Shown piece after piece: positions 2,474 to 19,796 of a stretch of DNA of 64,000 nucleotides. The stretch is from a virus. Both the position numbers and the translations under genes were made by a program. Location of the stretch: positions 1 through 64,000 of IMG/VR virus record IMGVR_UViG_3300017758_000003; one strand, given 5' to 3'. Below the pieces are notes generated by a model. It did no database searches, was not told where the DNA came from, and was given only the letters and a program-made list of their open reading frames with translations. How positions within the stretch are numbered: the stretch's first letter is position 1; the number at the start of each line of letters is the position of its first letter.

Positions 2474-3148
2474 CTATGGGTTTTTTTGGTCGAGTCCGAT
2501 AATAGGACCACCATTTATCTGTGGACGAATCTTATATGATTTAAGTTTCTTTCCAAGATCGAAACCAATCTTAGATTCGTTGTCCTCAGAACTAAGGTCC
2601 AACTCTATTTGTGCAATAGATGTCATACGTGGAAGTAAGTTAAGTTCTATATTAATATCTTTTACGGTGTAACCTCTAAGGTACGCTTTCACTATAGTAT
2701 GATCTCTCTTAAGTCTTGTCATACATTCATCTTTCGGGGGGAGATTATCAATACCATATATAGAACGTTTCAGTAATACAATATCGTTTTGTGAATCTCT
2801 AATGTCTACAACAAGTTCTCTACCTTGTGATCTCATGATATTCTTTTTCGTGCCAATTAGAATTACGGACCCTCCTCCTTCGAGTCTGTCTTTGATGGTA
2901 ATCTGTCCAATGAAGATTACACCATCTTCTACTTTAAATTCTTGTTTGATTTGTTCAACTGTATAAGTAAGAATTTGGGATACTGTATCTTGTAGTTGTT
3001 TAGTGTTTGGAACAATATCATTATACTCTATATCTATATACACAGTAAACATATCATCAGATGAACCTTTAACTATTTGAATCTTCCCCGCAAAGTCCTC
3101 ATCGTTTAGTTGTACCGTTTTTCCCTCAAATAAATCAAGTAGTTTCAT
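2474..3148 (-). CDS. hypothetical protein, probably late/virion (start MKLLDLFEG)
   Basis: ORF track 2474..3169; the ATG at 3148 follows a TATTTAT motif at 3155-3161 (minus). Confidence 0.65.
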   Translation of the reverse strand: MKLLDLFEGKTVQLNDEDFAGKIQIVKGSSDDMFTVYIDIEYNDIVPNTKQLQDTVSQILTYTVEQIKQEFKVEDGVIFIGQITIKDRLEGGGSVILIGTKKNIMRSQGRELVVDIRDSQNDIVLLKRSIYGIDNLPPKDECMTRLKRDHTIVKAYLRGYTVKDINIELNLLPRMTSIAQIELDLSSEDNESKIGFDLGKKLKSYKIRPQINGGPIIGLDQKNP

Positions 3149-3352
3149 ATTCTTATAAATATATGCCAATTAGAATCTGAGATGGATCTTCTTCTTGAGT
3201 CAGACTAACTAACATTTGCTAGTTTACCGTGCCAATTAAAATCGTCCCTGATCCGTCGGGAATCTTGATGGAATAAAAAAAGGAGCCCATTTATAATGAA
3301 CTCCTTAATTCCAGCGTTTGTCGTAATCGATTACTTAAACTATGATAGATGC

Positions 3353-3547
3353 TTATGCAACTGCCTTTTGTTTCAGTAACTGATTTCGGAACTTGACCGC
3401 CTTCGCTTTGTTAGTGAAGTACTCGTCATACTGTGTTCCTTTGATCGACACTCTTACTCTGTACTTGTTACCATTGCCATTAGTGACTTGGTACATGTTG
3501 TTACCGAGATTAGTGTAGCTGTAAGTAGATGTGGTTGTTCTTCCCAT
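3353..3547 (-). CDS. stand-alone AP2-like DNA-binding domain protein
   Basis: NMYQV..NKYRVRVSIKGTQYDEYFTNKAKAVKFRNQL matches the 3-strand + helix AP2 pattern; upstream TTGACT-N17-TATACT; downstream terminator. Confidence 0.6.
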   Translation of the reverse strand: MGRTTTSTYSYTNLGNNMYQVTNGNGNKYRVRVSIKGTQYDEYFTNKAKAVKFRNQLLKQKAVA

Positions 3548-3734
3548 AATTTCTAATTACTAATTTTTGAACATTTATACAACCTATTTGACCAGGTTAT
3601 ACTAAAGTATACGTAATTAAAGCAAGAAAGTCAACCCCCCCGCTTGGGAGTTCATTATATTTCAACATGTCAAAGAACTAAATAGTGTGTGTGTGTGCCG
3701 ATTAGAATTGATCCTGTCTTCAGGATCCTGATCC

Positions 3735-3911
3735 TTATAGGATTCCTATACGATGCATCACGTAAAGTAGAATCATAAGACCCGCTCCGTACGTAACTGT
3801 GTAAAATTGAAACCTCTGCATATTTTCCCACTTCTCTTTAGTTCTTCCTTGTCTGTACATGTTATCCTCTTCTACAGTAGATAACATTTTTTCTTTTAAA
3901 TTTTCTCTCAT
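3735..3911 (-). CDS. small hypothetical membrane protein (58 aa, below ORF-track cutoff)
   Basis: MRENLKEK...YGAGLMILLYVMHRIGIL*. Confidence 0.5.
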   Translation of the reverse strand: MRENLKEKMLSTVEEDNMYRQGRTKEKWENMQRFQFYTVTYGAGLMILLYVMHRIGIL

Positions 3912-3936
3912 ATGTGAAACGTTTTAATATTAATAA

Positions 3937-4071
3937 CTAGTCTATTTTGTGTCTGACTCTGTCAGCCCACGAGGAGATGTAGTTATTTTCCTCCTCAAGG
4001 GATTTATCAAATTCTTCTTGAGTCATCCCCATGCTCTTTAACTCTTCAGGTGTTAGTACTATCTTTTCCAT
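3937..4071 (-). CDS. small acidic hypothetical protein (44 aa)
   Basis: MEKIVLTPEELKSMGMTQEEFDKSLEEENNYISSWADRVRHKID*. Confidence 0.5.
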   Translation of the reverse strand: MEKIVLTPEELKSMGMTQEEFDKSLEEENNYISSWADRVRHKID

Positions 4072-4194
4072 AATTTAACTTATCTAGTCTTTGCTGTAGT
4101 TTTTGAATAAACATTTTAATCTCGGGTGTCTGTTCTACCTTTTGTTTATATAGTCTCATTGTTTCTAAGATCATTCTATGGTCTTCACTTCTAC

Positions 4195-4413
4195 TCATCT
4201 CCTGTGCCGATTAAATTGTGCATCACCATCCTGATCCTTGTTGTTTAAATCAAGCTGTCTACCAAAGAAGTACATTAACTTCTTTTCTGCAGTTTTCATA
4301 GATTCTTCATCTCTTACTTCTGCAGCCTCTTCCCATTTACCCATCCAATAGGATATCTTGGGAAGGAATCCGTGTGGGTATTTCCCATCATAAGTTTTAC
4401 CATTCTTCTCCAT
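4195..4413 (-). CDS. hypothetical early protein
   Basis: ORF in co-oriented early cluster. Confidence 0.6.
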   Translation of the reverse strand: MEKNGKTYDGKYPHGFLPKISYWMGKWEEAAEVRDEESMKTAEKKLMYFFGRQLDLNNKDQDGDAQFNRHRR

Positions 4414-4888
4414 ACAAATTGTTTTTTATGTCTTTTTCTAATTGAACTTCCTTTATCTCTACTAGATCCACGTTTAGAAATTCTTCTACTTGAACCTTTT
4501 TAACATATAAGGTTTTATCCTCAATGTAAATGTCACCTTCGAACCCGTCCAAATCACTATAGGGTATATCGTTACACACCCAATGTGGTTTGACTTTCGG
4601 ATTATAAGAAATCTTAACACATTCCTGCCGATTAAAATCCGACAGGTCCTGAGATCCTGATGGAAATGATATCCACGAACACACTGTTTTGTTGGAACCT
4701 CCATGAATTTGATTGGCAACATTCTTTCTATTATTTAATTTACCATTCGTTATAGTATAAACGAATTCACTCGGACTATAGTACTCAAGTATACCATCTA
4801 CTTTATTTCTTAATTGCCACTTCATGAAGTTTACTCCTTTACCTAAGTGGAATCTTAACCTGTTATCTCTTTTAAATTTCATATTCAA
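4397..4888 (-). CDS. hypothetical early protein
   Basis: ORF in co-oriented early cluster. Confidence 0.65.
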   Translation of the reverse strand: MNMKFKRDNRLRFHLGKGVNFMKWQLRNKVDGILEYYSPSEFVYTITNGKLNNRKNVANQIHGGSNKTVCSWISFPSGSQDLSDFNRQECVKISYNPKVKPHWVCNDIPYSDLDGFEGDIYIEDKTLYVKKVQVEEFLNVDLVEIKEVQLEKDIKNNLYGEEW

Positions 4889-5019
4889 CCTCCATTTCTT
4901 CTATTAATAAATTCTCGTTTGTTTTACAGTCGGGACACACCTGTTGAAATGTGCCAAGTACTTTATGTGGAAGGAGTTCTTCAGTGGTCCCATCCCACAT
5001 ACAGTAGTTACATTCTACA

Positions 5020-5598
5020 TTAATCATAATACCCCTCCTCTAAAAGTTCTTCTTCTCTTTCTTCTTCACTCTGAAGAAAAGTTACCTTAATCCCGTGAAC
5101 CATATCGTCCATCTTACAGATTTCTAACTTGTACATACCATCACCATAACCTGTTGATGATACAACTCCCGATTCATAGGTACCCCACTGTTCCTCCCTT
5201 AAGGTACGATCACACATTTTGACGTACCACTTTTCACCTTTTTCTTTAGTTGGTCTGAAGGGGTGATCACCAAACGGATCTCCCTTATCAGTTAACCATG
5301 GTAATTTCTTTGATAGTTTATCATTACGGTAGGATGTCATACAGCAGATACTCATCTGTCCACTGTCAACAGCGACATTACCCAAATCCTCCCATACAGG
5401 AGTTTGAATATTTTCGTGAAGTACACTGAGTGATGCGATTCTATCACCCCAATCACCCTCATCGGATTTTACCACCTCTGTGTCATACACACCAGGTCGC
5501 ATATTATTAATTTGAGTGTTGAACCACCCATCTACATCGTCATAACATGGGTCGGATACTATAACTTTTCCACCCAAACGGATTTGATTTTTTTTCAT
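5020..5598 (-). CDS. DUF4241-like protein
   Basis: VIVSDPCY, VAVDSGQMSIC and STGYGDGMY motifs. Confidence 0.65.
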   Translation of the reverse strand: MKKNQIRLGGKVIVSDPCYDDVDGWFNTQINNMRPGVYDTEVVKSDEGDWGDRIASLSVLHENIQTPVWEDLGNVAVDSGQMSICCMTSYRNDKLSKKLPWLTDKGDPFGDHPFRPTKEKGEKWYVKMCDRTLREEQWGTYESGVVSSTGYGDGMYKLEICKMDDMVHGIKVTFLQSEEEREEELLEEGYYD

Positions 5599-5735
5599 TG
5601 TAACACCTTTAAAATTATAACTCGAATATACTAGTTATTTTTGGAATATACTAACTTATGTCATACATTCCGTGCCGATTAGAATTCGCTCCCGTAGGGA
5701 CCGTGATCAGGATTCTTTCGGATATATTTATATTT

Positions 5736-6053
5736 CTACTGATGATCATCTACCAATAATTTATAATTAACTTCTAACAGTTGGTCAAGAATGTATGACA
5801 CTGTCTCTACATCTATTCCCTTTACTTCGAAATCGATATCATCACCTATTGAATCTCTACCCGTAAGTAGTCCTTCTTCAGTGATTCCCGTACAAACCCA
5901 TGTTTCAGGGTCAGTTAGACCCGTAACATCAACACTTATTTGGAACATCCTATCGAACTCGATTGGGTTTCCCTTAAGTTCATCCTTTATATAACGGACG
6001 ACTTTGGTTCGTACTTTGTGTTTATAATCTTCTAATAATTGAACGTATGACAT
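5736..6053 (-). CDS. hypothetical early protein
   Basis: 105-aa ORF. Confidence 0.6.
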   Translation of the reverse strand: MSYVQLLEDYKHKVRTKVVRYIKDELKGNPIEFDRMFQISVDVTGLTDPETWVCTGITEEGLLTGRDSIGDDIDFEVKGIDVETVSYILDQLLEVNYKLLVDDHQ

Positions 6054-6085
6054 ATACTAATTTTAATTAAACAAACGTGAAGTCA

Positions 6086-6562
6086 CTATTTCTTAGTGAG
6101 TTTCACATAAAGGTTTTTGTTCTCGGCAATTACCGAGTCCATGGCCACCGAGATTCTCTCATGTGCCTTTTTCATAAACGTTAGATCTTTCGATAACATA
6201 TCAATATCATCACCATCAATATCTGTTTTACCAACGATGACTCTGATATCTTTAGTACTTCCACCACGTCTAAAAAATGGGGAACGTGCATAAATGTACT
6301 CGTCCCTAATCACCGAGAGCTTGATCTCAGTAACATTTTCTTTGGCACGGAGTTGAAGAATGATTTCCTCAAGTAGTGCCACAGTATCGAATTGTGTCTT
6401 CCACTTAGTTACTACTGATTTGTAGTAATTCGTAAAGTCAGTAAGTTCCCCACTCATTTTATCGGGTGATTGATTTAAGAACAATTCGAATTGTGAAAGT
6501 TCCTTATCGGTACCAACAACTTGAGTGAAAACTCCATTTACATGTTTTATCTGTTTCGCCAT
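6086..6562 (-). CDS. hypothetical early protein (probable start MAKQIK)
   Basis: ORF track 6086..6604, whose upstream extension overlaps a TGCC box. Confidence 0.6.
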   Translation of the reverse strand: MAKQIKHVNGVFTQVVGTDKELSQFELFLNQSPDKMSGELTDFTNYYKSVVTKWKTQFDTVALLEEIILQLRAKENVTEIKLSVIRDEYIYARSPFFRRGGSTKDIRVIVGKTDIDGDDIDMLSKDLTFMKKAHERISVAMDSVIAENKNLYVKLTKK

Positions 6563-6790
6563 ATTATATTTAAATTTAAAGTTATACTTAATCTCTCTTG
6601 CCAATTAGAATCGGAACAGGTCCCTGATCCTCCTTGGTCTTTCTTTATTTTTTTTCTTTCGCTAATATAATCATTATATCATTTAGTTATTAGTAAATAA
6701 CTTAGAGTGCTTATCCATTATTGGCTGACACTATCTCAGAATAGTCAGTGGTATTGCTTGACTCATTGCTCTAAGTTAATTTCTATATAA

Positions 6791-7519
6791 TTAAAAAGGT
6801 AGGTCATCTACTTCTTCCACAGTATCCAACGAAGGTGTCCCATCACTTTGAATTTTGCCAGGTTCATCCATTTCAGGTTTTACCTTACTGAAATTTTCTT
6901 TTAATTCCTTCATAACCTCATCTACCAATTCTTCTTTCTCAGAATCATTAAGGAATTCATACCAGTTCTCCATTTCTTCAAGAACTTCCTTTCTTGATGG
7001 TATTTTCTCAACATCAAAGTTCTCTACGAAACTTTCTCTACCATAACCTTCCCATTCTCTATCATACCATTCGGCATATCCCTCGAATGCATAAATTCCT
7101 CCTTGGTATGAATAATCCTCCTCCTCCATTATTTGTCCATTGGAAATTTTACATTTACCACAGAAATCACCGCCAGGTTCTTCGTAATACATCTCAACAC
7201 TTAGAGAGTAAAGTTCAGAACATTGTCTCCAAAATTCCATTGGTGGACTCCAAGCTGTATCATCACTCCAACTCCCCTCATCATCATCAGTAAATTCAAA
7301 TCCTTTTGAATCTACATCCCACTTTGTTCCATAACGAGCGATGTTGTGGTTATACCACCCACCATCATTAAACTTCTCATCTGTAATAGATTCATCTCTA
7401 CCGATAAGTTTTTCAAACATATTTATTTTGTCATCACCATTTTCAATGATTGACTTCATTTTACGGATGTCTTTTGAATCACCTGTAAAGTTTACCGAAT
7501 TGTAACACCAGTTTGGCAT
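6791..7519 (-). CDS. YubB/DUF1281-like ferredoxin-fold protein
   Basis: MPNWCYN start, WYNHNIARYGTKWD, DTAWSPP, YYEEPGGDFCG. Confidence 0.7.
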   Translation of the reverse strand: MPNWCYNSVNFTGDSKDIRKMKSIIENGDDKINMFEKLIGRDESITDEKFNDGGWYNHNIARYGTKWDVDSKGFEFTDDDEGSWSDDTAWSPPMEFWRQCSELYSLSVEMYYEEPGGDFCGKCKISNGQIMEEEDYSYQGGIYAFEGYAEWYDREWEGYGRESFVENFDVEKIPSRKEVLEEMENWYEFLNDSEKEELVDEVMKELKENFSKVKPEMDEPGKIQSDGTPSLDTVEEVDDLPF

Positions 7520-7583
7520 AATTTATAGTTTTAAGTTATTACGATTATATTTTAATATGTAAAGATATAACATTTTTATCTTT

Positions 7584-7994
7584 TTACCACCAGGAACTAT
7601 AATAAACATCATATCCCTTTCTAATGGCTATTAGTGCCTCTTCAACAAATCCAAGGTCTTCTTCTTTATATTCTTCAGATGAATCATCCCCAAAAAAGAA
7701 ACCACAGGTATCAGGAAGTTTACCCGTTTTAATATCCTCCTCAAGAGTTTCTAAATCCTCCCAAGTTAATTGGACATTTACACAATTAAACTCAGATGAC
7801 TCACCACCCTTTTCATAGTAAAGGTCACTCATCCATCCTTGGAGATGCGGGTGTTTCCTCCAATAGTGGAGTTCTTTCTTATCTGTCAGAACTTCGTGTT
7901 CTTGTGTTTCTTCGTTGTATTTCTCTGTTTGGAAATCAACAGGTTTTTTAATGAACCCCTTTTTTACTCTATATGCGAATTGGTCTAATCCCAT
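7584..7994 (-). CDS. conserved phage protein (MGLD...YWRKH...YSSWW type)
   Basis: Pattern common in phage early regions; function unknown. Confidence 0.7.
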   Translation of the reverse strand: MGLDQFAYRVKKGFIKKPVDFQTEKYNEETQEHEVLTDKKELHYWRKHPHLQGWMSDLYYEKGGESSEFNCVNVQLTWEDLETLEEDIKTGKLPDTCGFFFGDDSSEEYKEEDLGFVEEALIAIRKGYDVYYSSWW

Positions 7995-8023
7995 TGTTTT
8001 ATTTTTTATTGATTACTATATAA

Positions 8024-8054
8024 CAAAGATAACCATTATATTGTAAACACCAAA
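8024..8054 (-). promoter_or_regulatory. Bacteroidota-type housekeeping promoter
   Basis: TTTG-N19-TATCTTTG. Confidence 0.85.
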
Positions 8055-8259
8055 CTATAATGGTTATATTTTTATGCCAATTACATTAAGGGAGGACTCA
8101 GGATCCTGATCTGATCACCTTGGGATTTACTATTTTATTCGGCATACTGTCGTACATGTGCCAATTAGATTTGAACAGGTGATCGGCATGCATAATAAAT
8201 TGAGCATAAAAAAAACCCCACTAACTAAAGTGAGGTCTTTATTTGTTAATGAAGTTTTA

Positions 8260-8787
8260 TTAGGTGTGCATATCGACATAAACAACATACTTCTTATTCG
8301 TAGGGTCATCATTTTCTAATTGAGATATATGCATTTGAGTAACACCACATTCTCCTAATTCCCATTCATAGAAGTAGTCTTGTAATACATCAAACTCTCG
8401 ACCTCGTTTATCTAAACCAATTTTTACTGTTTCGATTTGAAACATATCTTCACAATATTTCTTGGCACTATACCAATCGAAAGGACTTTTATGTTTACCC
8501 TCACTACATTTGATAAAGTTATCTTTATGGTAGTCCTCGACTTTCATCCACCCAACAACTTGCCGATTAATATCCTCAACAGTGGTCCCTTCATGTGGAC
8601 ACCACCTCGAATTACCCCATTCTTTATTTTTGTCATACGTGGAATACACTTCGTTATCCTCACTAATACAACCACCAATAGTTCTCCAATTATTTTCAGT
8701 TCCCCATCCTGATATTTCCGTTTCAACAGCATCGCAAGCCTCTTGTGGGGAAGAGGCGTTTACGACACAAAAATGTAGGTTATGCAT
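8260..8787 (-). CDS. hypothetical early protein (probable start MHNLHF)
   Basis: ORF track 8260..8835. Confidence 0.65.
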   Translation of the reverse strand: MHNLHFCVVNASSPQEACDAVETEISGWGTENNWRTIGGCISEDNEVYSTYDKNKEWGNSRWCPHEGTTVEDINRQVVGWMKVEDYHKDNFIKCSEGKHKSPFDWYSAKKYCEDMFQIETVKIGLDKRGREFDVLQDYFYEWELGECGVTQMHISQLENDDPTNKKYVVYVDMHT

Positions 8788-9262
8788 AATCTTTAGTTTT
8801 AGAGTATTCAATTCCTTCTTCTCCAAACAATTCAACTTTTAAAGCTTGTCGTTGTTCGTCGTAGTCCGAATGATTTTGTGATTTCCATTCTTCATAAAAA
8901 TTCTCTTTCCACCAACTATCCTCACACAATACCCGTATTACATCATAAGATATGTCTTTGTAATTTTCTTCGGCATATCCGTAAAGGTTTTGTTTGTGAT
9001 TTCTCTTTGGTACGAACTTACCCTCATCTGCATAATCCCCACTAACTACGATATTATCTCCTGCCCAAGAACCCACAAGTGGATTATCACTTCTCAAATC
9101 TCCACCCCCACGATTATTTCCATCGGCGAGTAGAATAGCAAGTCCTTGCATTATTGATTGTCTGTCTGATGAAAACTCCATCAACTTTGCACCACTACCA
9201 AATGCGTGTGGTGTCATTACTTCTCCTTTTGTGGTATTAACCACTTTATAATACTGTCCCAT
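8780..9262 (-). CDS. conserved phage protein (MGQYY...KLMEF...WAGD type)
   Basis: Recognisable motif pattern; function unknown. Confidence 0.7.
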   Translation of the reverse strand: MGQYYKVVNTTKGEVMTPHAFGSGAKLMEFSSDRQSIMQGLAILLADGNNRGGGDLRSDNPLVGSWAGDNIVVSGDYADEGKFVPKRNHKQNLYGYAEENYKDISYDVIRVLCEDSWWKENFYEEWKSQNHSDYDEQRQALKVELFGEEGIEYSKTKDYA

Positions 9263-9264
9263 AA

Positions 9265-9538
9265 TTAAAATGTTATTTTAGTTGATACTTCATTAACAAC
9301 AGAGTACGACGACTTATTAATAGTCTCCTTTATTCTGTTAGAAAATTCCTCTCTTGTTTCTTCTTCGTGAACTTTGTCGATAGGTAGACTAATACCTAAA
9401 TTAGATATTGCAAATGGTGTTCCACTCGAAGAGTGTCCCCCAAATAACGAATACCTAATTGAACCTTCACTTAACCTACAAACTAATGTTTTAGGATTTC
9501 CGTAGACATCTTTAAGATGTAAATGTGATAACTTCATG
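9265..9538 (-). CDS. hypothetical early protein (probable start MKLSHL, approximate)
   Basis: ORF track 9265..9603; promoter 9568-9599 lies within the annotated extension. Confidence 0.55.
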
Positions 9539-9567
9539 ATTATTATTTTTAAATGATTACTAATACC

Positions 9568-9599
9568 CAAATATAATACTTTTTTCTTTATACACCAAA
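9568..9599 (-). promoter_or_regulatory. Bacteroidota-type promoter
   Basis: TTTG-N20-TATATTTG. Confidence 0.85.
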
Positions 9600-9639
9600 A
9601 CAATCTATCTTTTTTCTCTGCCGAATAGATTAATGGCAG

Positions 9640-10026
9640 TTAAGATCCCCATGTAGAAACTAAAGGATGTTCTTTTACTTTCCAATCATTACCATTAATT
9701 GTTATGGTAAATTTGTATTGTTCACTATGACCACCGATATAACTATAATCAAACCAAACATTAATTTTATTATCCCCACAAGTTACCCCTAAGTTAGTTT
9801 GAACTTCATCATTGATGAAAGGTTTCATACTATCTATATCCCAAACGAAATCAGTAATCTCATCAATCATTTCTTCTTCTTCACTTGATACCTTTACACC
9901 ATTCCACCAAAAGAGTTCTAAATCTTCAATCTCTTCATTCATAACCATACAATTGAATTCAACTCTTTTCATATTAGTGGACATACTTTTATTCAATCCA
10001 CCTGACTTTGACTTATTATTTTTCAT
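9640..10026 (-). CDS. hypothetical early protein
   Basis: 128-aa acidic ORF. Confidence 0.6.
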   Translation of the reverse strand: MKNNKSKSGGLNKSMSTNMKRVEFNCMVMNEEIEDLELFWWNGVKVSSEEEEMIDEITDFVWDIDSMKPFINDEVQTNLGVTCGDNKINVWFDYSYIGGHSEQYKFTITINGNDWKVKEHPLVSTWGS

Positions 10027-10254
10027 ACATCTAATATAACACTATTTTCTTTATACCACAACTAGTTATCTGCCAACTATAATTCGTAACAGCGAAGAGT
10101 AAGAGCAACTGATCCAGCGCACTGAGCTCGCAGATATTAATTGGCACGTGCCAAATAGAATTCACAGTGCATGATGACTATAGTCATCATTTTAGAGCAT
10201 AAAAAAAGGGAATACTTTCGTACTCCCAAATTCATATCAGATATTAGTTTGAGT

Positions 10255-11034
10255 TTACACCCGAATGAATATCTTTTTGTCAGTTCTACGTTTGAAGTTA
10301 TAGATGTCTTCAATCATACGAGAATAACTTGCCTTATCTCCACATAACTTAAAGTAGTGTGGTACTATCTCGGCTTTCTTCATAAATTCACTCATTACAA
10401 ATGACCCCTCTTTATTTTTAAAGTTTGACTTGGAATCTTCAACAGTTGAATACTTGTTAAGAACACTTAACATAGTTCTTACAAAAACTGTTCTGTAATA
10501 AATCTTAGGAGCGAACGGTTCGAGGGATAAAATGAAGTCGGCATACATTCTTGCCTTATCCATAGACCCCGCTTTAAATCTTCCCTCACTAAAGACTTCT
10601 TTCTTCATACCACTAGCAAGACCTCCCTTTAAGAATATACAACTATCAGTCAAACTAAATATTGGATACTCTTTTCTGAACTCCATAAGTTTAACATAGT
10701 TTTTATTCCCTTTACTTACGTAATGTGAAAGGTAGTCATTCTTAGACCAATTTTTCATAGTCTTATTAATTGACATCATTTCATCTTCTCCGTACTTGTT
10801 CGCAGTTATAAAGTATAGACCTTTCCCTGCGATCTTAGCCGCCTCGAATCTATGTTGTCCGTCGATAATCTGTTTTTTACGATTAACAATAATAGGAACT
10901 TTTAATAATCCCTCGTCTTCCATAGATTTTGCAATCTCCTTAATTCGAGCTTTAGACTTAACTCGATTGTGGTCCATTGGTTTGAACATTTCTAGGTTTG
11001 TGGTGTAATACACCGTGTCATTTTGATATCTCAT
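10255..11034 (-). CDS. ParB/Srx N-terminal domain protein
   Basis: NR...IAKSM...VPIIVN...IIDGQHRFEA. Confidence 0.75.
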   Translation of the reverse strand: MRYQNDTVYYTTNLEMFKPMDHNRVKSKARIKEIAKSMEDEGLLKVPIIVNRKKQIIDGQHRFEAAKIAGKGLYFITANKYGEDEMMSINKTMKNWSKNDYLSHYVSKGNKNYVKLMEFRKEYPIFSLTDSCIFLKGGLASGMKKEVFSEGRFKAGSMDKARMYADFILSLEPFAPKIYYRTVFVRTMLSVLNKYSTVEDSKSNFKNKEGSFVMSEFMKKAEIVPHYFKLCGDKASYSRMIEDIYNFKRRTDKKIFIRV

Positions 11035-11078
11035 AAATCATTATCTTTTTTAGGTGAAACATTAACTAATATCATAGA

Positions 11079-11110
11079 CAAATATAACACTAATAATGTA
11101 ATACACCAAA
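11079..11110 (-). promoter_or_regulatory. Bacteroidota-type promoter
   Basis: TTTG-N20-TATATTTG. Confidence 0.85.
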
Positions 11111-11191
11111 TAAATTCGTATTACATTAGTTAAATGTGTGCCAATTAAATTTGACCAGTCCTGAACCCAGTTCCAGTCCAGCTTAGAAAGA

Positions 11192-11268
11192 GAAAACCCC
11201 CATCATTTCTGATGAGGGTATTTCATAGTAATCACTGTAAACATTTATTGTCATGAAGATTTACAGAC
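11192..11268 (-). ncRNA. putative early small RNA A
   Basis: Promoter TTAG-N20-TACATTTG (11271-11302), 5' hairpin CTGTAAA/TTTACAG, linker TGATTACTATG, intrinsic terminator 11192-11220; no convincing ORF. Confidence 0.55.
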
Positions 11269-11302
11269 TACAAATGTACTGTGTAATTTTTTCATATCCT
11301 AA

Positions 11303-11509
11303 TTATAGGGTAACATTAACTGACGCGGTAAAGTTGTGGCTTTGCATTATTTCGCGGGATACCACCGAATGAATGGTACTTGCGACTTTTTTATATTCAT
11401 CTATTGACCAAGACGTACTTGGTGTTTTTAAATGAATCTGACCATCTTTAACCGTAAACCGAACTCTTATACTTTTCTTACTCACTTTGCTTAATAACTG
11501 ACTGAACAT
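11303..11509 (-). CDS. hypothetical early protein
   Basis: 68-aa ORF. Confidence 0.5.
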   Translation of the reverse strand: MFSQLLSKVSKKSIRVRFTVKDGQIHLKTPSTSWSIDEYKKVASTIHSVVSREIMQSHNFTASVNVTL

Positions 11510-11678
11510 ATTCTAATTTATTTATGGTGTCTACATGTTGTGAACCACGAAAACGGTTTTGTTGGTGTATCACATTGACGTGTACACCTCCACTTGGTGT
11601 GAACCCTTCCTTGATTAACGTGTTTACTTTGGTTTGTAAACCTTCGGGTGATGATGAATATACTACTTTATATTCCAT
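11478..11678 (-). CDS. small DUF1737-like protein
   Basis: YKVV...LQTKVNTLIKEGFTPSGGV...YVQSVIK; own promoter CTTG-N20-TATATTTG at 11708-11739. Confidence 0.55.
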   Translation of the reverse strand: MEYKVVYSSSPEGLQTKVNTLIKEGFTPSGGVHVNVIHQQNRFRGSQHVDTINKLEYVQSVIKQSE

Positions 11679-12187
11679 TTTAAATGTTTTATTAATGATT
11701 ACTTCTTCAAATATATAAAAAATAATTGATTATATCAAGTCTTTCTGTAAAAAAATTTGTGATCTGGACCGTCCCAGGTCAATTTTATTTGGCAACAGTG
11801 CCAATTAGAATGTGAGATGGAGACTGAACCGTCGGGTGTGGACTAATAAAACCGAAAGAAAATGTGCCGATTACATTACTTGATACCAATTCACCTTCAG
11901 AAAAAAATCAAAAAAAGTTTGGAACATCAGAAAAAAGTTCGTGAATTGGATACCCATTCTAAAATCTAATTGGCAGACAATCGACTCTATACCTGGAGAA
12001 GAAGGATTCGTTTCGACGTGCACATCTATACATTTTAGTTGGCGGGATCATGCCAATTAGATTTAAGCCAGGCAGCTGTCATAAAAGTTGACCACCTATT
12101 TCTATAAAACAAGAAAACCCCCACAAAAAGTGGGGGTCTCACAGACTAACCAAAACAATGTGTCACTTAAGACACTCACACAACAAA

Positions 12188-12511
12188 CTAAATTTCTACC
12201 ATATTACTAAAGTCTCTATGGATATCAATTGGAACTTCATAGGTCTTACCATTCTTTGGATGTTTCCAAACTTCGGTTTCCCCACAATATTTTTCTTCTA
12301 AAAATTCTAAACCTAATGGGTTACTTTCTTCATACATCTTACGTATTACATTTTCAAAGTTTACCATCTTTTGTTTTATTTTCTTACCTGCAAAGTCTTT
12401 ATACTTAAATTCAACTTTGTATTTCTTCTCGAACTCTTGTACACAAGATGCATTATAGTTACTTGAATATACTTGAGTGAATACTTCCACCATTTCGTTA
12501 GTCCATTCCAT
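12188..12511 (-). CDS. hypothetical early protein
   Basis: 107-aa ORF. Confidence 0.6.
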   Translation of the reverse strand: MEWTNEMVEVFTQVYSSNYNASCVQEFEKKYKVEFKYKDFAGKKIKQKMVNFENVIRKMYEESNPLGLEFLEEKYCGETEVWKHPKNGKTYEVPIDIHRDFSNMVEI

Positions 12512-12513
12512 AA

Positions 12514-12747
12514 TTAATCAGTTACATATATTACATCCGATGTCTTTTCATCTTGGTAGTACATCGACCCACCATCATTTCCTTCATCATCTGATTGAGG
12601 AATTAAAATTGTTCCATCAGTAAATTCTATTACTACGGGTCTCTTATACCACATAAGGTTTTCCATATCCTTATCTCCCAACCACTTTACTGATTTAATC
12701 GTTTTACCTTTTAGGTACTTGTTGAATTGTTTTAAATGTTTGTCCAT
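12514..12747 (-). CDS. hypothetical early protein
   Basis: LKGKTIKSV...PQSDDEGNDGG; promoter CTTG-N19-TATCTTTG at 12775-12805. Confidence 0.65.
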   Translation of the reverse strand: MDKHLKQFNKYLKGKTIKSVKWLGDKDMENLMWYKRPVVIEFTDGTILIPQSDDEGNDGGSMYYQDEKTSDVIYVTD

Positions 12748-12805
12748 TACAATATTTTTAAATGATTACTTATTCAAAGATATAAAACTTTTTCTATTAT
12801 ACAAG

Positions 12806-13000
12806 TTAATATTCATCTTTTTTCCTGCCGTTTAAAATCGAGGATACCTTCTTGAGTTTCTCTTTGAATTCTTCTACCATACATTCTTCATCAACAACTA
12901 CCTTATCCTCATCATCATAGAAGTAGTACACTGGAATACTTATAAAATTCTTATCACTGGTTGACCTACTGGTCAAATAATTATCTTCGTTGTTTATCAT
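12806..13000 (-). CDS. hypothetical early protein
   Basis: 64-aa ORF. Confidence 0.55.
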   Translation of the reverse strand: MINNEDNYLTSRSTSDKNFISIPVYYFYDDEDKVVVDEECMVEEFKEKLKKVSSILNGRKKDEY

Positions 13001-13386
13001 AATTCTTTTATTGCTTGCCCATTAAAATATCCACATGTCACGGGGATCTTTCGTGGGTTGGATATGAAGTATGTAATACACCACCAAAACTTTTCTAATT
13101 GTGTATTACATTCAAAGGGCTTTACTCCCTCTGCAGTTGATAACGTAATATGTGGGAATTTATTAGACGAATCTCCACCTTTAACTAATAGACAATCTAC
13201 TTTCTCATCAGTATATCTTCCGATAACTTCAAGCTTAAGTTTCTTACCAATCTTTAAATCGTCTATGTCTTTGGGACGGAAGTCGATCGTTTGGTGATGG
13301 TAAAAGTGATTGGCATGTTTCGGTGGGAAGAGTTTTTTCAAACTCTCAACCTCATCTACAAAATATCCACTATAAATTACATTCAT
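12997..13386 (-). CDS. 2H phosphoesterase family protein
   Basis: Two HxT motifs (HHQTIDF, PHITLS) followed by AEGVKP. Confidence 0.65.
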   Translation of the reverse strand: MNVIYSGYFVDEVESLKKLFPPKHANHFYHHQTIDFRPKDIDDLKIGKKLKLEVIGRYTDEKVDCLLVKGGDSSNKFPHITLSTAEGVKPFECNTQLEKFWWCITYFISNPRKIPVTCGYFNGQAIKEL

Positions 13387-13397
13387 TGTATTACATT

Positions 13398-13628
13398 TTA
13401 TCTAAGGAGTGTAACAACACTTCCAAATTCAAATTCAAACTCACTAACTAAATGTTCGTAGTCTCCTGATGTCATACGTTTAATCATCTTATCGATGTTA
13501 CTTGGTGACATTCCGATTTCTCTACCTAAACGTTTTGCGGTGCCCATTAAAAAGTAGGCATTCCCGTCAGGTCCTGTTAAATCGATTTCAATTCCCCTTG
13601 TGGGCATTTCTGATTTTAACTTTATCAT
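13398..13628 (-). CDS. conserved small phage protein
   Basis: IDLTGPDGNAYFLMG...MTSGDYEHL. Confidence 0.65.
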   Translation of the reverse strand: MIKLKSEMPTRGIEIDLTGPDGNAYFLMGTAKRLGREIGMSPSNIDKMIKRMTSGDYEHLVSEFEFEFGSVVTLLR

Positions 13629-13942
13629 TATTTTTTATTTAAGTCGGTTAATTTAATCCATCCTTCCTTGATTCCTTTCCTGCATTGTTCAGTTCCCATT
13701 CCTAAGAATTCACCTCTATATTTAGAAGTAGTCCTTGAATAGTTCCAATAGTGCTCATCGAATACATACTTAGGTCTTCGTTCATTACCATTACCATATC
13801 TATCAAAAGACCTATAACAAATCTTCGTTCCATAAGATACGAACGTTTCCCCGTGGGGGTCCGACATAATACATTGATTGGCAGAAGGGTTACCACCTCG
13901 TGTGGTCATTGGTTTTACATTTACAAATTGAGATAATCTCAT
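13628..13942 (-). CDS. conserved small phage protein
   Basis: FVSYGTKIC...WNYSRTTSKY; promoter TTTG-N20-TATATTTG at 13972-14003. Confidence 0.65.
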   Translation of the reverse strand: MRLSQFVNVKPMTTRGGNPSANQCIMSDPHGETFVSYGTKICYRSFDRYGNGNERRPKYVFDEHYWNYSRTTSKYRGEFLGMGTEQCRKGIKEGWIKLTDLNKK

Positions 13943-14048
13943 AATTACTTTTTTTATTGATTACTAATATTCAAATATAACACTTTTTTCTTTATATACC
14001 AAATAAAAGTGTGCCGATCAAAATCCTTGATGGGCCCTGATTCCTATC

Positions 14049-14276
14049 CTATGATAACATCTCGACATTTAATTCTTTTACGAGTTCCCTAACTTGTTCT
14101 TGGGTTAATTGAATATGTGCATGTGGTAATCCGTATTTGTCTACGTCGGGTTGAATATTAATTTGCACCATAACACCATTCTCTCCACCACTAAAGCGAG
14201 TTAATTTAATTTCTGATTCGTTGTAACCAAAATCCGTTTCCTTACGACCTTTGATTGTTTTTAGTTCTGTTGACAT
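14049..14276 (-). CDS. hypothetical early protein
   Basis: 75-aa ORF with own promoter-like element. Confidence 0.6.
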   Translation of the reverse strand: MSTELKTIKGRKETDFGYNESEIKLTRFSGGENGVMVQINIQPDVDKYGLPHAHIQLTQEQVRELVKELNVEMLS

Positions 14277-14599
14277 AATTTATATTTTGTATAAAGATAT
14301 GAAACTTTTTCTATTATACCAAATTTAAGTTATCTATGTTTGCCAATTACATTACTTGATACCCATTCCCGCGGAGGGTTCTTTACCAGGTGCAGCTGCA
14401 GTTTTTTAACTGGTGAAGTTGCATGGTCCTAGCAATGATTTTAATTGGCAAAAGATTTACTCTGATAATCAACAAGTTACGTTCCCTAATAGTATGGCAT
14501 GTTGTGCTAGGTGATCACAGCGCTGGTCCAGTATGGATTATAATTGGCACAAGATCGTACAGAAGACTGGCGAACATGTCTTCAAGAAACTTATCGGCA

Positions 14600-14680
14600 T
14601 AAAAAAACCCCCACCATTTCTGATAGGGGTTAATTTTCGTTTCACATAAATAGACCGATTAAACCTTTGGTTTAACCTAT
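14600..14680 (-). ncRNA. putative early small RNA B
   Basis: Promoter TTTG-N20-TATATTTG (14684-14715), 5' hairpin GTTAAACC/GGTTTAAT, linker, terminator 14600-14631; no ORF. Confidence 0.6.
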
Positions 14681-14853
14681 GAACAAATATATAACACTAT
14701 TATATAATAAACAAACTCTTTATAGTGTTATTTTATGTGCCGATTAATATCTGACCTGAGACACGGGTGATGAAACGAACGAGAAGTTCGTATAATAAAA
14801 AAACCCACTCTGTGAGAAGTGAGTTTTATTTGGTCTACTTATGTTCGATATTA

Positions 14854-15093
14854 TCAACTTGCAATTAACGAATATCTATTCATACTTTCTAATTCGACAT
14901 CATATCCAAAACCAATTCGGTTTGTAATACGTTGTCCAAGTCCTCGAGTACATTGAATTTCTTCTAATGGTGTACCAAGATGTTTTTTAACGAATTTATT
15001 TAAATTGTTTACGTTGAAGTGATGTTTACATCTACTATTATCAACGATAGTAAGGGTGTACCCCCTACGAGTTTTTGTTAGGTAACCTTTCAT
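14854..15093 (-). CDS. hypothetical early protein
   Basis: 79-aa ORF between promoter and terminator. Confidence 0.65.
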   Translation of the reverse strand: MKGYLTKTRRGYTLTIVDNSRCKHHFNVNNLNKFVKKHLGTPLEEIQCTRGLGQRITNRIGFGYDVELESMNRYSLIAS

Positions 15094-15360
15094 GACATTT
15101 TATTTTAGTGATTAACATACCACCAATGTAATACATTCTTTTTATATAACCAAATTAATGTGATACTTTTTTATTAACAAAGTTATTAGAGTCTAATTTA
15201 TCTTCCCCTGCAGGTCCTAGATATTCTATTCGGCAGATCCTGCCAATTAGTTTGAAGTTATTTTTATTTAAGTTTATTTTATTTTTTATTTTTCGAGTAT
15301 AAAAAAACCCCTCTCTTTCGAGGGGGGTAATTAACAAGTAACAGAAAAGTTTGAAAACTA

Positions 15361-15837
15361 TTACTCTATTTCATACTTAACACCTTTGTAAGTTATACTT
15401 TTTATGTTGTCAAGTTTGATAGTCATAACATTGACATCACGACTTTGGTAAGTCGGTAAGTAGGTTTCAAAATCATCTTTAAAAATTTCGTTCCCATTAA
15501 ATTCGTAGTCATTAGAAGTATGGACATTTTCAAACCCCTCAATCATTAGGTATTTGTTATCGTTGTTTCTATGTTTAACTACACAATCTGAAATGTGTTC
15601 AAACCAATTTTCTTTTACCTCAAAAGTAGGGTTGGTTTTTTGTTTCCTTTTTTCATAATCGGGTAACAAACGAACATTCTTTTTTGATGTTTTAAAAACC
15701 TTATCAAAATAAGGGTTGTTTTTTTTGTTCATCTTTACTTTGGTTAAAGTAACCAAGTTAATGAAATCTCCTTTTTCAAAAGAAGTTGTCAATCTCTCAA
15801 GTTCATTTTGATTGATTGTTGATACTGATTTTTTCAT
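15361..15837 (-). CDS. hypothetical early protein
   Basis: 158-aa ORF; promoter 15870-15901; terminator ~15300-15328. Confidence 0.7.
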   Translation of the reverse strand: MKKSVSTINQNELERLTTSFEKGDFINLVTLTKVKMNKKNNPYFDKVFKTSKKNVRLLPDYEKRKQKTNPTFEVKENWFEHISDCVVKHRNNDNKYLMIEGFENVHTSNDYEFNGNEIFKDDFETYLPTYQSRDVNVMTIKLDNIKSITYKGVKYEIE

Positions 15838-16285
15838 AATTTGTTTTGTTTTATGTGATTAACTATACTCAAATATAACACTTTTTATCTGTTACAACAA
15901 AATATAATGAAGTTTTTTTTATATTTCTCTGCCGACTAATTTGTCAAGAGACCCACTGTCCGTCGTCTACTTGAAGTAGATGAGATGTACGGGTAACATT
16001 TCATTGGGCAGTGCCGATTACATTAGGGAAGGATGCATGGTGAAGGTTTCATTGGGCAGTGCCAATTAGATTAAGACAGGGACGGTGAACCTTCAGTCGT
16101 ATTAGGGAATAAAAAAACCCCCACAATTTCTGCGGGGGAATCAAAACAAATTAACTAAACTAACTACTAAACATTCCAAACAATACTAACGATTGTTCTT
16201 ATCACAAAGTAAGAGAACGACAAACCAATTATCCACCAACATAAGTTGTCAAATTTATCACTCTCTAACCAAGTGGTTATTTTTT

Positions 16286-16477
16286 CTAATTTCTCTTCCA
16301 TGATAATCTATACTTTTGAATTTGAAATTTAACGTATGAATACAAACAATATACTAAGGTTGAATAGAACATTACCAAACAAGTTGCCCAAAAACCAAAC
16401 AACAATAACATTCCAATTCCATTTTCATTCGTTTCTAAAACGAATATGTCTACTAACGATTTAATACTTTCTAACAT
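16286..16477 (-). CDS. small membrane protein, first gene of the early module
   Basis: Hydrophobic segment; promoter TTTG-N19-TATATTTG at 16514-16544. Confidence 0.55.
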   Translation of the reverse strand: MLESIKSLVDIFVLETNENGIGMLLLFGFWATCLVMFYSTLVYCLYSYVKFQIQKYRLSWKRN

Positions 16478-16786
16478 AACTTTTTTTTTAAGTGTTTATA
16501 AATGATTACATAACAAATATAATAATAATACTTGTATACCCAAAACAAATCAATATAAAGTTTGAACATAATCTGCCGAATACATTAGGGAAGGATGCAT
16601 GGTGTGCCTCGGTCACACAGCAACTTCTTCTTCTGATCGCACAGTGAGTCTGCTGTTGTATTCTATTTGGCACTTGCCAATTACATTAAGGGAGGATGCA
16701 TGGTGATTCGTGATCAAGAAGAATATGGTATGAGTTATATGGTGGAGTCGAAGTTACCATCTCAGGATCTGCTATTGTAATTGGCA

Positions 16787-17010
16787 CCCCTCCCCACTAT
16801 ATAGGGGTATAGGGGGACCCCCCTGCAGGTACCCCCTCCCGTATCCCCCCTTAATATAGGGTATTTTCGTACTCTGTACAGGGGGGTCAATGCCCTGAGT
16901 GAAATTTTTGGCAATTTTTTAGGGAAAATCGACTTTTTTTTTTCTCGGGGGGTAAAAAACCTCTATAGGGTAAAAGGGGTCATTTATGAAAATAAAAATT
17001 TTGCCAATTT
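16787..17010. other. G/C-run-rich boundary region, candidate genome terminus or packaging site
   Basis: GGGGGACCCCCC, G6/C6 runs and phased A/T tracts exactly where the TGCC boxes and early genes stop. Confidence 0.4.
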
Positions 17011-17020
17011 TTCGGGGAAT

Positions 17021-17356
17021 TTGACTATCAACAATAAATTATGTATGTTATCTAATGTAAAAAAGAATGATATGGTAAAATGGATGAGTAAAGAAGAGGA
17101 AGAATTAAATGAGATAATTTGTACATCAACAAGAGAAGGATTCTTATCGTTTTTAGAAGATACTACTCAAAGATATGTGGATTCTATAGATACATTAGAC
17201 GAACTTAGTGTTGTTGCCTTGTTATTGGCGGTAAGAATGGGTCAGTATGAGGAAGATGAAGATTATGAGATTTGTTCAATTGTAAAGGAGAAGATGGATA
17301 TGATAGATAAACACGGGATGAAACTATTAAAACAAAAGGAAGATGAAAAAAATTAA
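17021..17356 (+). CDS. hypothetical protein with UVR-like motif
   Basis: EEDEDYEICSIVKEKM. Confidence 0.5.
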   Translation: MTINNKLCMLSNVKKNDMVKWMSKEEEELNEIICTSTREGFLSFLEDTTQRYVDSIDTLDELSVVALLLAVRMGQYEEDEDYEICSIVKEKMDMIDKHGMKLLKQKEDEKN

Positions 17357-17473
17357 GTGGGACGTATTGTTTACGTGGATAGTTATATTCGGAATTACTT
17401 ATTTCATATGGAGTTCTTTATTCTCAATAATGTTCGGGCTTGTAAATTTCCCAACTATAAACATTCCTTTAAG

Positions 17474-17902
17474 TTAAGAGAATATCTCTTTTAGATCTGA
17501 AATAAATTCAAACTCCAATCCCATAAGGTTCAATAGGTAGTTTAATAGTATCAGTATTATTACTCCTATGATTAATTGTACTATTATGGTTTGTCTATTT
17601 AACCATTTTATCCATAGGGTGTTTTGTGTCCATACTACATATCGTTTCCACCATTTGGTTTTCTCCATCTTCTCAATTGACTTTTCCTGTAAGTAAGATG
17701 ATGGGTTTAATATATTACCTATGGTTTCCATTACATACTTGAAATGTTTTGTGAATACTATAGGGATGTAGATAAATGGGATCATCATTATTATTAGTCC
17801 TAAGAAGAATAACCCTATTGTATCTTGGTATTCTATTAGTATTAGGTTACCCACCGCAAAGGGTACCACTGTCCATAATGTATGTTTTATCCATTTTTTC
17901 AT
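17474..17902 (-). CDS. membrane protein
   Basis: Three hydrophobic segments. Confidence 0.6.
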   Translation of the reverse strand: MKKWIKHTLWTVVPFAVGNLILIEYQDTIGLFFLGLIIMMIPFIYIPIVFTKHFKYVMETIGNILNPSSYLQEKSIEKMEKTKWWKRYVVWTQNTLWIKWLNRQTIIVQLIIGVIILILLNYLLNLMGLEFEFISDLKEIFS

Positions 17903-18831
17903 ATTAATCCATTCCCTTTTAATTTAACCCACTTCCAAGTTACTCCCCATTTCTTATACTCCCTTAATTTCCTATCACAATATTTGTACATAAGTTCAGA
18001 GGTATGACTCCAAGGTTGTGGTAATACCTTCGTGAAATGTCTATTCACTTGGGATGTTGTACTATAAATAAAGTCAGGATGTGTTTTATCATCTTGTGAG
18101 AATCCTGAATCCCATGTAGTTCCTTCAGTATCTAACATATGAGCTTGTTGAGATATGTAAGAGAAGTATGGGGAATATACATAAGGGAAGACCCCTCTCA
18201 TTCTTGGTCCTAAGGTATCTAAGTATAAATCAACTGGCATGTTGATCTTATAGTCCTCCCTAATCTTCCATAGAACTGAACGGTCCAAGATGTATGCGTG
18301 TGCACCAATACCATCAAATGGATTGGGTTTTTGTAATGAATCTGTATATTTCTCTCCCTGTATCTGTTGTGTCGTTCTTCCAACCCACATAATATCAGAA
18401 TAATATTTCTCTGAGTCGTCTATAAACTTCTTATAGTCTCCACTGAATATATGTTCACATAACTCAGGAGATGGTCTTGCATCATCCTCTAAGAATAATA
18501 CTTTCCTACCTTCAACATTCTCCCATGCAAATTCCCATGCTTTCCTATGGGCAAGTGCAATACCTATCATATTCTCTGTAAGTCCAAAGTGTTCATAGTC
18601 GTGCCATTCCCCATTTAAGGTTCCATCACTTAAAAGTTCCTCAACATCAAAGTCCTTTGGAAATACCGAATCTGAGAATACATAATCAAACCCCTCAAAG
18701 GAACTCCATGCCTTTATGAAGTCCTCTTTTCTCTTTTTGTTGTTTGGGTCAGTAATAACCACCGCTGATGATGCACCAAAGTTTCTTAAATGTACCTTGT
18801 GATACTTTACTTTACTTTTTTTCTTCGACAT
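17899..18831 (-). CDS. glycosyltransferase family 25-like protein
   Basis: IGIALAHRKAW, VLFLEDDA, GAHAYIL, PVDLYL. Confidence 0.75.
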   Translation of the reverse strand: MSKKKSKVKYHKVHLRNFGASSAVVITDPNNKKRKEDFIKAWSSFEGFDYVFSDSVFPKDFDVEELLSDGTLNGEWHDYEHFGLTENMIGIALAHRKAWEFAWENVEGRKVLFLEDDARPSPELCEHIFSGDYKKFIDDSEKYYSDIMWVGRTTQQIQGEKYTDSLQKPNPFDGIGAHAYILDRSVLWKIREDYKINMPVDLYLDTLGPRMRGVFPYVYSPYFSYISQQAHMLDTEGTTWDSGFSQDDKTHPDFIYSTTSQVNRHFTKVLPQPWSHTSELMYKYCDRKLREYKKWGVTWKWVKLKGNGLI

Positions 18832-19063
18832 CTAACATATCCTGTGTGAATTCATCAACCATGTTCTCCACTTCTTTCTTACCCCCCTTAGTTCTCATAT
18901 CTACACTCTTACCTCTTCTCGATGCAAGTTCTACAAGTATAATGAGTAAAAAAACCTCGGGTATTATAATCTCCCATTCCATTCCTGTTTTCTTCATCGA
19001 AATGGTGATCACCACATAAGAGAAGAAACGGATCTTTTTAATAAAATTGATTAAACGTTTCAT
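18812..19063 (-). CDS. small membrane protein
   Basis: 83-aa ORF overlapping the GT25 start. Confidence 0.45.
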   Translation of the reverse strand: MKRLINFIKKIRFFSYVVITISMKKTGMEWEIIIPEVFLLIILVELASRRGKSVDMRTKGGKKEVENMVDEFTQDMLDVEEKK

Positions 19064-19106
19064 ATACTTAAATTATACAGATAAATACTTATAAAATAAA
19101 GTCGTT

Positions 19107-19796
19107 ATGTATAAACATGTTTGTTCTTTTGGTACCATTTGTCACACCGCAAGGTTTATGCAACGTATCCACCTAAAAAAGGAGTCCTATCCCTTTGATT
19201 GGACATTTTCTGATGAAACTATTATAAGTGACTGTCTTGAGGATCGTTTTGAAAAGTTTTTGGACAAATCATACTATACTGATGTTAAAAACGACTTCCA
19301 TGAGTTTAATTGTGGACATACTCACTATCACGAAGATTTCTTCTTCCATAAAGATCCACGTAGAGATGATCACTATCAGTACTATAAAAGATGTGTTGAT
19401 CGTTTTAATACTATGTGTGAATCACATAATAGAAAGTTATTCGTTGTTTTGTTTTCCCCCGAAATTACAAAACACCCCTTAAGTCTCTCTAAGATAGTTG
19501 AGAGTGGTTCAGATAAACAAACTATTATTGAGGACATGAAACGTAGGGGACGTATCATTAATAACTCCTTATCTAACTATACAACTAACTATAAGTTATG
19601 TGTTGTTATGAACTTTGGTGATAATGAAGTTCAGACTTATGATCTTCAGGTTGATGGTTGTGTAGACTTTCTTACTCTTAATACCATTTCCCCCTCGCAA
19701 GGTGTAACATTTTCAGGAGGTTGGAGTACGAACCAACATCCAGACAATTATTATATGTCAGGTTTATTTACAGAACTATACAGACTAACTCTCTAA
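19107..19796 (+). CDS. DUF1796 putative papain-like peptidase
   Basis: SFGTICHTA...KKESYPFDW...YKRCVDRF. Confidence 0.7.
   Translation: MYKHVCSFGTICHTARFMQRIHLKKESYPFDWTFSDETIISDCLEDRFEKFLDKSYYTDVKNDFHEFNCGHTHYHEDFFFHKDPRRDDHYQYYKRCVDRFNTMCESHNRKLFVVLFSPEITKHPLSLSKIVESGSDKQTIIEDMKRRGRIINNSLSNYTTNYKLCVVMNFGDNEVQTYDLQVDGCVDFLTLNTISPSQGVTFSGGWSTNQHPDNYYMSGLFTELYRLTL

Follow-up and report, generated by a model that had tools for sequence, protein, structure and literature searches.

Analysis of the window, the first 64 kb of one 78,043-bp contig, revealed on the minus strand a small unit, here called sRNA A, that is very probably a selected, structured RNA gene. Pairing in trans with early-mRNA 5' ends would be the best reading of its function, and we are modestly inclined to believe that most early mRNAs are paired by sRNA A at their 5'-terminal word, which in this way sets the fate of the class.

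The unit lies in a lytic-looking marine Bacteroidota phage; no sign of lysogeny was seen in the window, and about 15 public metagenome runs, marine or viral, contain the stretch in near-identical form. Phage record databases, from which close records are probably withheld, gave no match by DNA or by protein. Small minus-strand genes are clustered at ~2.4-18.8 kb, and this early block consists of short cassettes, each with a Bacteroidota-type promoter (TTTG-N19/20-TAnnTTTG) and an intrinsic terminator; terminator-like sites are enriched between 7 and 18 kb (19 against 5.1 +/- 2.7 expected). The tRNAs and the tmRNA were the sole Rfam matches in the window. To our knowledge, the timing of gene expression in Bacteroidota phages is little understood and the sRNA biology of the phylum has barely been explored.

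The earlier note on this DNA had described a promoter-hairpin-linker-terminator unit at 11192-11302 on the minus strand, and we found it there, with a predicted transcript of 74 nt (11266->11193). Its own promoter comprises a weak, non-consensus -33-like TTAG (11302-11299), followed after N20 by the -7 box TACATTTG (11271-11278), which fits TAnnTTTG. The 5' hairpin (nt 1-32, 11235-11266), with an 8-bp stem and a loop containing the conserved UUCAUGAYA, begins 4 nt past this box. Between the hairpin and the terminator stands the single-stranded stretch UGAUUACUAUG; the unpaired linker measures 15 nt, opens with UGAUUACU (11234-11227) and contains the seed GUGAUUACUA (11226-11235), whose predicted mean unpaired probability is 0.96. 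The intrinsic terminator (11192-11219), which is common to the upstream operon, has a 10-bp stem (11219-11196) followed by a T-run. The predicted fold has an energy of -24.4 kcal/mol (z = -4.4 against shuffles), and sRNA A matches no Rfam family, the best local score being 21 bits against a threshold of 50. Contigs from RNA libraries, considered over 2000-20000 (three RNA libraries and one labelled cDNA that is probably DNA), gave sparse cover of the region, at a depth of 1-5 with unreadable starts and ends; that sRNA A is expressed as a discrete species is what we infer.

To compare the unit among phages, the ParB-like homologues were aligned and the related metagenome loci were then retrieved; ParB-like protein identity over the compared loci is 48-53%, the near relatives P0002-P0007 (82-84% ParB identity) being outside this set. 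The sRNA A unit was present in three clades of related phages found in marine metagenomes, the window's and two others at about 50% ParB identity to it. Close homologues that share its architecture were found in L005, L008, L009, L014, L017 and L018, and the covariance model R1 retrieved 7 loci at 73-91 bits (E ~1e-12 to 1e-15). The homologues in L019-L022 are more diverged: their 5' stem is a different one, and a further hairpin is present. Pattern scans of viral contigs with the exact sRNA word, with promoter plus motif and with the seed word returned chance or coding matches only.

In the model-fitted alignment 99.1% of the cells are paired, and 6 of the 18 pairs of sRNA A show changes on both sides, three per helix, a level not reached in any of 500 shuffles or in any slid control; since the alignment was fitted to the model, the structure is somewhat favoured in these figures. 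In the 8-pair stem of the 5' hairpin, the L005 clade differs from the window on both sides of 3 pairs, and L019-L021 carry a third, distinct 5' stem; the terminator stem shows compensatory changes in 3 of its 10 pairs. The linker GUGAUUACUA is invariant in alignment A6, in which variation is seen in the loops, the distal linker and the terminator, and its core UGAUUAC is unchanged in 10/10 homologues; over the same loci, identity between the neighbouring proteins is no more than 36-67%. The predicted probability that the seed is exposed is 0.89-0.97 in six of the seven window/L005-type homologues (L018 being the exception, at 0.59), and 0.62-0.63 in L019-L021.

These data bear directly on the possibility that there is no functional RNA here, the unit being a terminator plus spacer or a small peptide gene. 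An ATG-initiated 23-codon frame (11183-11254) does exist and a terminator would be required at this place in any case. The frame, whose translation the earlier note had named as a possible refutation, is not conserved, however: it is down to 5 codons in the L005 clade and to 4 codons in that of L019; a plus-strand frame of 39 codons (11253-11372) is likewise lost between clades. Both losses follow from 1-nt indels between the clades. Because covarying stems together with an invariant linker need selection on RNA, we regard the absence of a functional RNA as highly improbable, and a real sRNA gene as well supported. A further candidate, an attenuator for the downstream gene, was rejected because that gene differs between clades: it is ParB-like in the window (10255-11034) and in the L019 clade, and a different one in the L005 clade.

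Within the hairpin loop UUCAUGAYA (window 11249-11257, minus strand), found in 9/10 homologues, we also observed the palindrome UCAUGA. The sequence of this loop shows complementarity to the surroundings of start codons, for example to UGUCAUGAA in gene 14854-15093 (target 15089-15097). The loop might form a second contact, correctly placed for a two-part interaction with a leader; the complementarity fits only 2 of the 10 window start codons.

The unit had been called an orphan, a description that did not survive the comparison, since it is syntenic and co-terminated with a two-gene operon upstream (11303-11678, minus strand; promoter box 11708-11715). This operon encodes a 66-aa protein with a weak match to DUF1737 (11478-11678) and a 68-aa protein (11303-11509), and has its own leader with AGTAATCA. 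No terminator was found between 11303, the end of the 68-aa gene, and sRNA A, so that the unit doubles as the operon's 3' UTR; the predicted layout is that of a 3'-UTR sRNA with an internal promoter. The pair of genes for 66 aa and ~56-68 aa directly precedes sRNA A in all three clades, with 67% identity of the 66-aa protein between the window and L020, and 53% (L005) and 36% (L020) identity of the second protein to that of the window. The 66-aa protein gave a confident beta-alpha-beta-beta model (pLDDT 91). A role as an RNA chaperone was considered for it and set aside, its uS10-like and Alba-like structural neighbours (Z <=5.9, Foldseek E >0.1) being within noise.

The complement of the seed is over-represented in the window. 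The word TGATTACT or its complement occurs 13 times against 5.0 +/- 2.3 expected, a number reached by 0 of 100 shuffles. The earlier note had placed the complement of the seed between promoter and ATG in the early leaders, and this was borne out by six copies of GTAATCA and by the variants at 15107 and 15855. Each of the six copies belongs to an early gene on the minus strand, lying 4-7 nt past its TAnnTTTG box and 15-25 nt upstream of its ATG. On the minus strand, with the length of complementarity and the energy of the predicted duplex, they are ATAGTAATCA at 8010-8019 before gene 7584-7994 (10 nt, -10.9 kcal/mol); TAGTAATCA at 9554-9562 before gene 9265-9537 (9 nt, -11.7 kcal/mol) and at 13958-13966 before gene 13628-13942 (9 nt, -9.9 kcal/mol); AGTAATCA at 11696-11703 before the 66/68-aa operon (8 nt, -10.5 kcal/mol) and at 12763-12770 before gene 12514-12747 (8 nt, -10.3 kcal/mol); and GTAATCA at 16503-16509 before gene 16286-16477 (7 nt, -9.2 kcal/mol). 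Within the early region the inverted orientation of the motif is found in the sRNA A unit only, as had been claimed, and GTAATCA is the dominant leader word in both relative clades as well as in the window.

The two variant leaders on the same strand are TAATCAC at 15855-15861 before gene 15361-15837 (7 nt in shifted register, -10.5 kcal/mol) and TAATCACT at 15107-15114 before gene 14854-15093 (-8.7 kcal/mol). Both keep 7-8 contiguous nucleotides complementary to the linker with the register shifted; in leaders of the TAATCACT type the G of the motif is lost and the complementarity is kept through the conserved AGUG flank. Such retained complementarity would be easier to reconcile with pairing of RNA than with a fixed box in the DNA.

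Other occurrences of the word were noted. In many leaders of the relatives (L005 8227-8262, L008 8131-8165, L014 5580-5612) a second (G)TAATCA abuts the start codon (GTAATCATG), which would place a second seed match on the AUG; the window counterpart is AATCATG only, at 9537. The tmRNA gene (57968-58353, minus strand) contains near its 5' end AGUAAUCA (58324-58331), which is complementary to the seed and may be there by chance.

The position of sRNA A behind an operon whose leader carries the target word raises a reading in cis, in which the seed in the 3' UTR of the 66/68-aa operon pairs with the 5' end of its own mRNA (AGUAAUCAU) and closes it end to end, the internal promoter and the trans targets being secondary; the ParB-like mRNA appears to do likewise. 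The missing terminator after the 68-aa gene, the synteny of the gene pair in all three clades, the complementarity of the operon leader over 8 nt and the 10-14 nt of complementarity between the 5' and 3' UTRs of the ParB-like gene, whose sequence is lineage-specific, all agree with it. It is opposed by the non-coding TAnnTTTG box that stands 4 nt before the hairpin in 10/10 homologues (the -33 element being non-consensus in all of them) and by the presence of the complement in 7 other window leaders, and it leaves unexplained a leader word common to many unrelated genes. We consider closure in cis quite improbable, and pairing in trans is the reading followed below.

The place of the motif within the mRNA was estimated from 52 distinct GTAATCA promoters drawn from the window and its relatives. 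The gap between the -7 box and GTAATCA is 4 nt in 35 of them, 5 nt in 6, 7 nt in 10 and 10 nt in 1, and GTAATCA ends 12-17 nt before the ATG in 38/52. The sigma-A box of Flavobacterium psychrophilum spans -12 to -5 (PMC9723704). With this box position and the 4-nt spacing, GTAATCA would correspond to about +1 to +7 of the mRNA, and we infer that the early mRNAs begin with this word, its G being +1 in most cases. The earlier note had the sRNA occlude the A-rich initiation region, a proposal that has to be given up in this form: with the motif at the extreme 5' end, the A-rich stretch beside the AUG falls outside the duplex, which would span roughly -24 to -15 relative to the AUG, and in 38/52 promoters the predicted pairing site is at the edge of the ribosome footprint.

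The same position supports a rival explanation, according to which the sRNA is real, GTAATCA is mainly a DNA-level element of early promoters, and the seed serves another target, for example a host mRNA. The element could be an initial-transcribed or start-site context for the host RNA polymerase, or a site for a phage or host repressor. This reading gains from the 35 of 52 promoters in which the word stands 4 nt past the -7 box, that is at +1, and from the distant relatives L001, L026, L029 and L031, which carry other conserved, lineage-specific words at the same position (e.g. CTAAAATTAAA and CTAATCAAAAA), so that a conserved +1 word may be partly a general property of these promoters. GTAATC also has a second context, since some boxes of the TAATGTAATYGGCA type contain it, as does a palindrome at 3323-3334; in the L019 clade an inverted pair ATTACA...TGTAAT surrounds the -7 box; and the flanks of seed and leader do not covary. 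The strong peak of the spacing at 4 nt, short of a strictly fixed position, keeps a DNA-level role alive. GTAATCA is, however, asymmetric and present in one copy per promoter, its spacing is 5 or 7 nt in 16/52 promoters (7 nt in 3 of the 6 window promoters), the ParB and sRNA promoters work without it, and the variant leaders stay complementary in a shifted register. There are 9 copies of GTAATCA on that strand in 78 kb, which gives a chance of about 0.002 for the 7-mer in a given 20-nt stretch, and an exposed, invariant 10-mer that is the exact complement would be a coincidence of that order. In view of both sides, we judge a promoter element with an unrelated seed to be unlikely.

Prediction of the duplexes is in agreement with pairing in trans. 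Eight of the 10 window early leaders form duplexes of -8.7 to -11.7 kcal/mol with the linker (9-11 bp including G-U), all predicted to start at leader nucleotide 1, against -3 to -4 kcal/mol for shuffled linkers; for the ParB-like leader and the leader at 14276 no linker pairing was found. Promoter-like sites followed by at least 7 contiguous complementary nucleotides make up 8/15 of those in the early region and 5/84 elsewhere in the genome, an enrichment that is effectively a single test because the leaders share ancestry. Genome-wide, linker duplexes at or below -8 kcal/mol were not enriched, numbering 42 against 33 +/- 9 for shuffles. Antisense matches of 10-12 nt to leaders across loci were likewise no more numerous than in the controls, complement or reverse.

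The earlier note had proposed, as a check, to look in related phages for covariation of the seed with the leaders, and none was found. Seed core and motif are invariant on both sides, so that nothing covaries between them, and no correspondence was seen between the seed flank and the base just 5' of GTAATCA (A in 18/34 against 4/14; T in 15/34 against 6/14). The short, AU-rich core duplex and the lack of Hfq in Bacteroidota also count against pairing. The missing covariation would leave the pairing open rather than contradict it.

In the mechanism that we propose, sRNA A would be transcribed from its own sigma-A-type promoter just past the stop codon of the 66-aa/68-aa operon, and probably be produced also as the 3' end of that operon. 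The unpaired GUGAUUACUA would pair in trans with the first 7-11 nt of most early mRNAs, (UA)GUAAUCA, giving one post-transcriptional handle on the whole early class. We lean towards repression of translation or stability, which might proceed through lower 30S loading on the short leaders lacking a Shine-Dalgarno sequence, or through induced decay. The silencing and the 'timer' of the earlier note are thus hypothetical. A duplex at the 5' terminus can also protect an mRNA, and stabilisation would be a serious, equally possible alternative. We put forward tentatively, with slightly more doubt than belief, that in a group of widespread marine Bacteroidota phages a dedicated 'anti-leader' sRNA in the 3' end of an early operon reads a common 5' tag and forms an RNA-only switch, by which the early class would be turned down, or shielded, as infection proceeds.

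Several known systems show partial similarity to sRNA A, the phage RNAs C4 and CI being the closest. The C4 RNA of phages P1 and P7 (immI) and the CI RNA of P4 are phage RNAs of about 75-80 nt that act in trans through short segments complementary to phage leaders; they serve the immunity of temperate phages, act on one operon by blocking the RBS or by premature termination, and are processed rather than separately promoted. Like them, sRNA A (~74 nt) is phage-encoded, operon-embedded and complementary to leaders of its own phage. It differs in that one seed is predicted to match the 5' ends of about 8 separate early units, in that it is separately promoted, and in its hosts, which lack Hfq and initiation led by Shine-Dalgarno sequences; there is no sequence or Rfam similarity between them. 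The RegB protein of T4 is an endoribonuclease that cuts GGAG in the Shine-Dalgarno sites of early leaders, and there too a short word common to early leaders permits class-wide post-transcriptional control. With sRNA A, unlike RegB, specificity would come from an RNA, directed to a word at the mRNA 5' terminus.

Sites at the mRNA 5' end and in 3' UTRs also have precedents. In Bacillus the sRNA RoxS pairs at the very 5' end of the yflS mRNA and stabilises it against RNase J1; sRNA A would similarly pair at the extreme 5' end, a comparable 5'-end-dependent decay in its host being hypothetical. The 3'-UTR sRNAs of the DapZ/MicL type, which are enterobacterial and Hfq-dependent, have an internal promoter and use the terminator of the mRNA. 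sRNA A resembles these in standing directly after a stop codon, with its own promoter and a terminator in common with the mRNA, and differs from them in that its parent mRNA itself bears the target word. In Bacteroides thetaiotaomicron, whose phylum has neither Hfq nor ProQ, GibS acts with a conserved single-stranded seed on the translation initiation regions of several mRNAs (PMC7366714). Both RNAs have a conserved single-stranded seed matching the 5' regions of several mRNAs; GibS is chromosomal and pairs across start codons with a long 5' seed, whereas sRNA A is phage-borne and is predicted to pair with the extreme 5' end through a short seed in an internal linker. We know of no description of one seed directed at the 5' terminus of many leaders, nor did we find one in the literature searched.

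If it is true, this design, together with the 5'/3' complementarity of the ParB-like gene and a second unit (B) described below, would point to a dense layer of RNA-RNA regulation in a phylum without Hfq or Shine-Dalgarno-led initiation. A conserved phage sRNA that reads a shared early tag would offer a compact and testable model of class-wide riboregulation. sRNA A would also be a new RNA family for the annotation of abundant marine phages, and the leader/sRNA A pair could serve for portable gene control in Flavobacteriia.

Other elements were observed in the window and its relatives. The ParB-like leader just past its start site (11064-11073) is complementary to the bases after the stop codon (10240-10249, minus strand), and complementarity of 10-14 nt between the same two places was found in L017 (7908-leader/8719), L019 (3456-leader/4268), L021 (1795-leader/2614), L007 (5483-leader/6307) and L026 (7948-leader/8748). 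Since the sequence differs in each lineage, this feature covaries at the level of the whole system; it could reflect pairing between the 5' and 3' ends of the mRNA, control of the leader by an RNA from the gene's own 3' UTR, or inverted DNA repeats on either side of the gene. An element containing CCGGGGACGGGGAGAWAATTCCGAACAAC lies ~30-60 nt before the ParB-like start in nearly all of the relatives L005-L037 (L005 1455-1490), and the ParB-like leader of the window is without it.

A second promoter-hairpin-linker-terminator unit without an ORF, B, occupies 14600-14691 on the minus strand, with a terminator that resembles that of sRNA A. It is conserved in the L005 clade (L005 ~4611-4700), where the linker keeps AUGUGAAA, and its match to the ParB-like leader is 7 contiguous complementary nucleotides only. 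In L029 (5851-5930), where the leader word is AACAATTAAAC, a strong promoter precedes a unit of ~60 nt ending in a terminator, the unpaired part of which has 14 contiguous nucleotides complementary to one leader 5' end (~2894) and near-matches to three other leaders. Similar anti-leader stretches occur just before terminators in L031 (12386) and L026 (8741), such matches, like that of L029, being not rare in AT-rich DNA.

Boxes of the form TAATGTAATYGGCA or TTGGCA...TGCCAA recur between terminators and promoters (14020-16700 and 11130-11880, minus strand). A GC-rich, repeat-like non-coding stretch with GGGGG/CCCCC runs and CTGCAG was also detected at 16780-16960 (minus strand); the L005-L017 clade has conserved it at a place immediately before the ParB-like gene.
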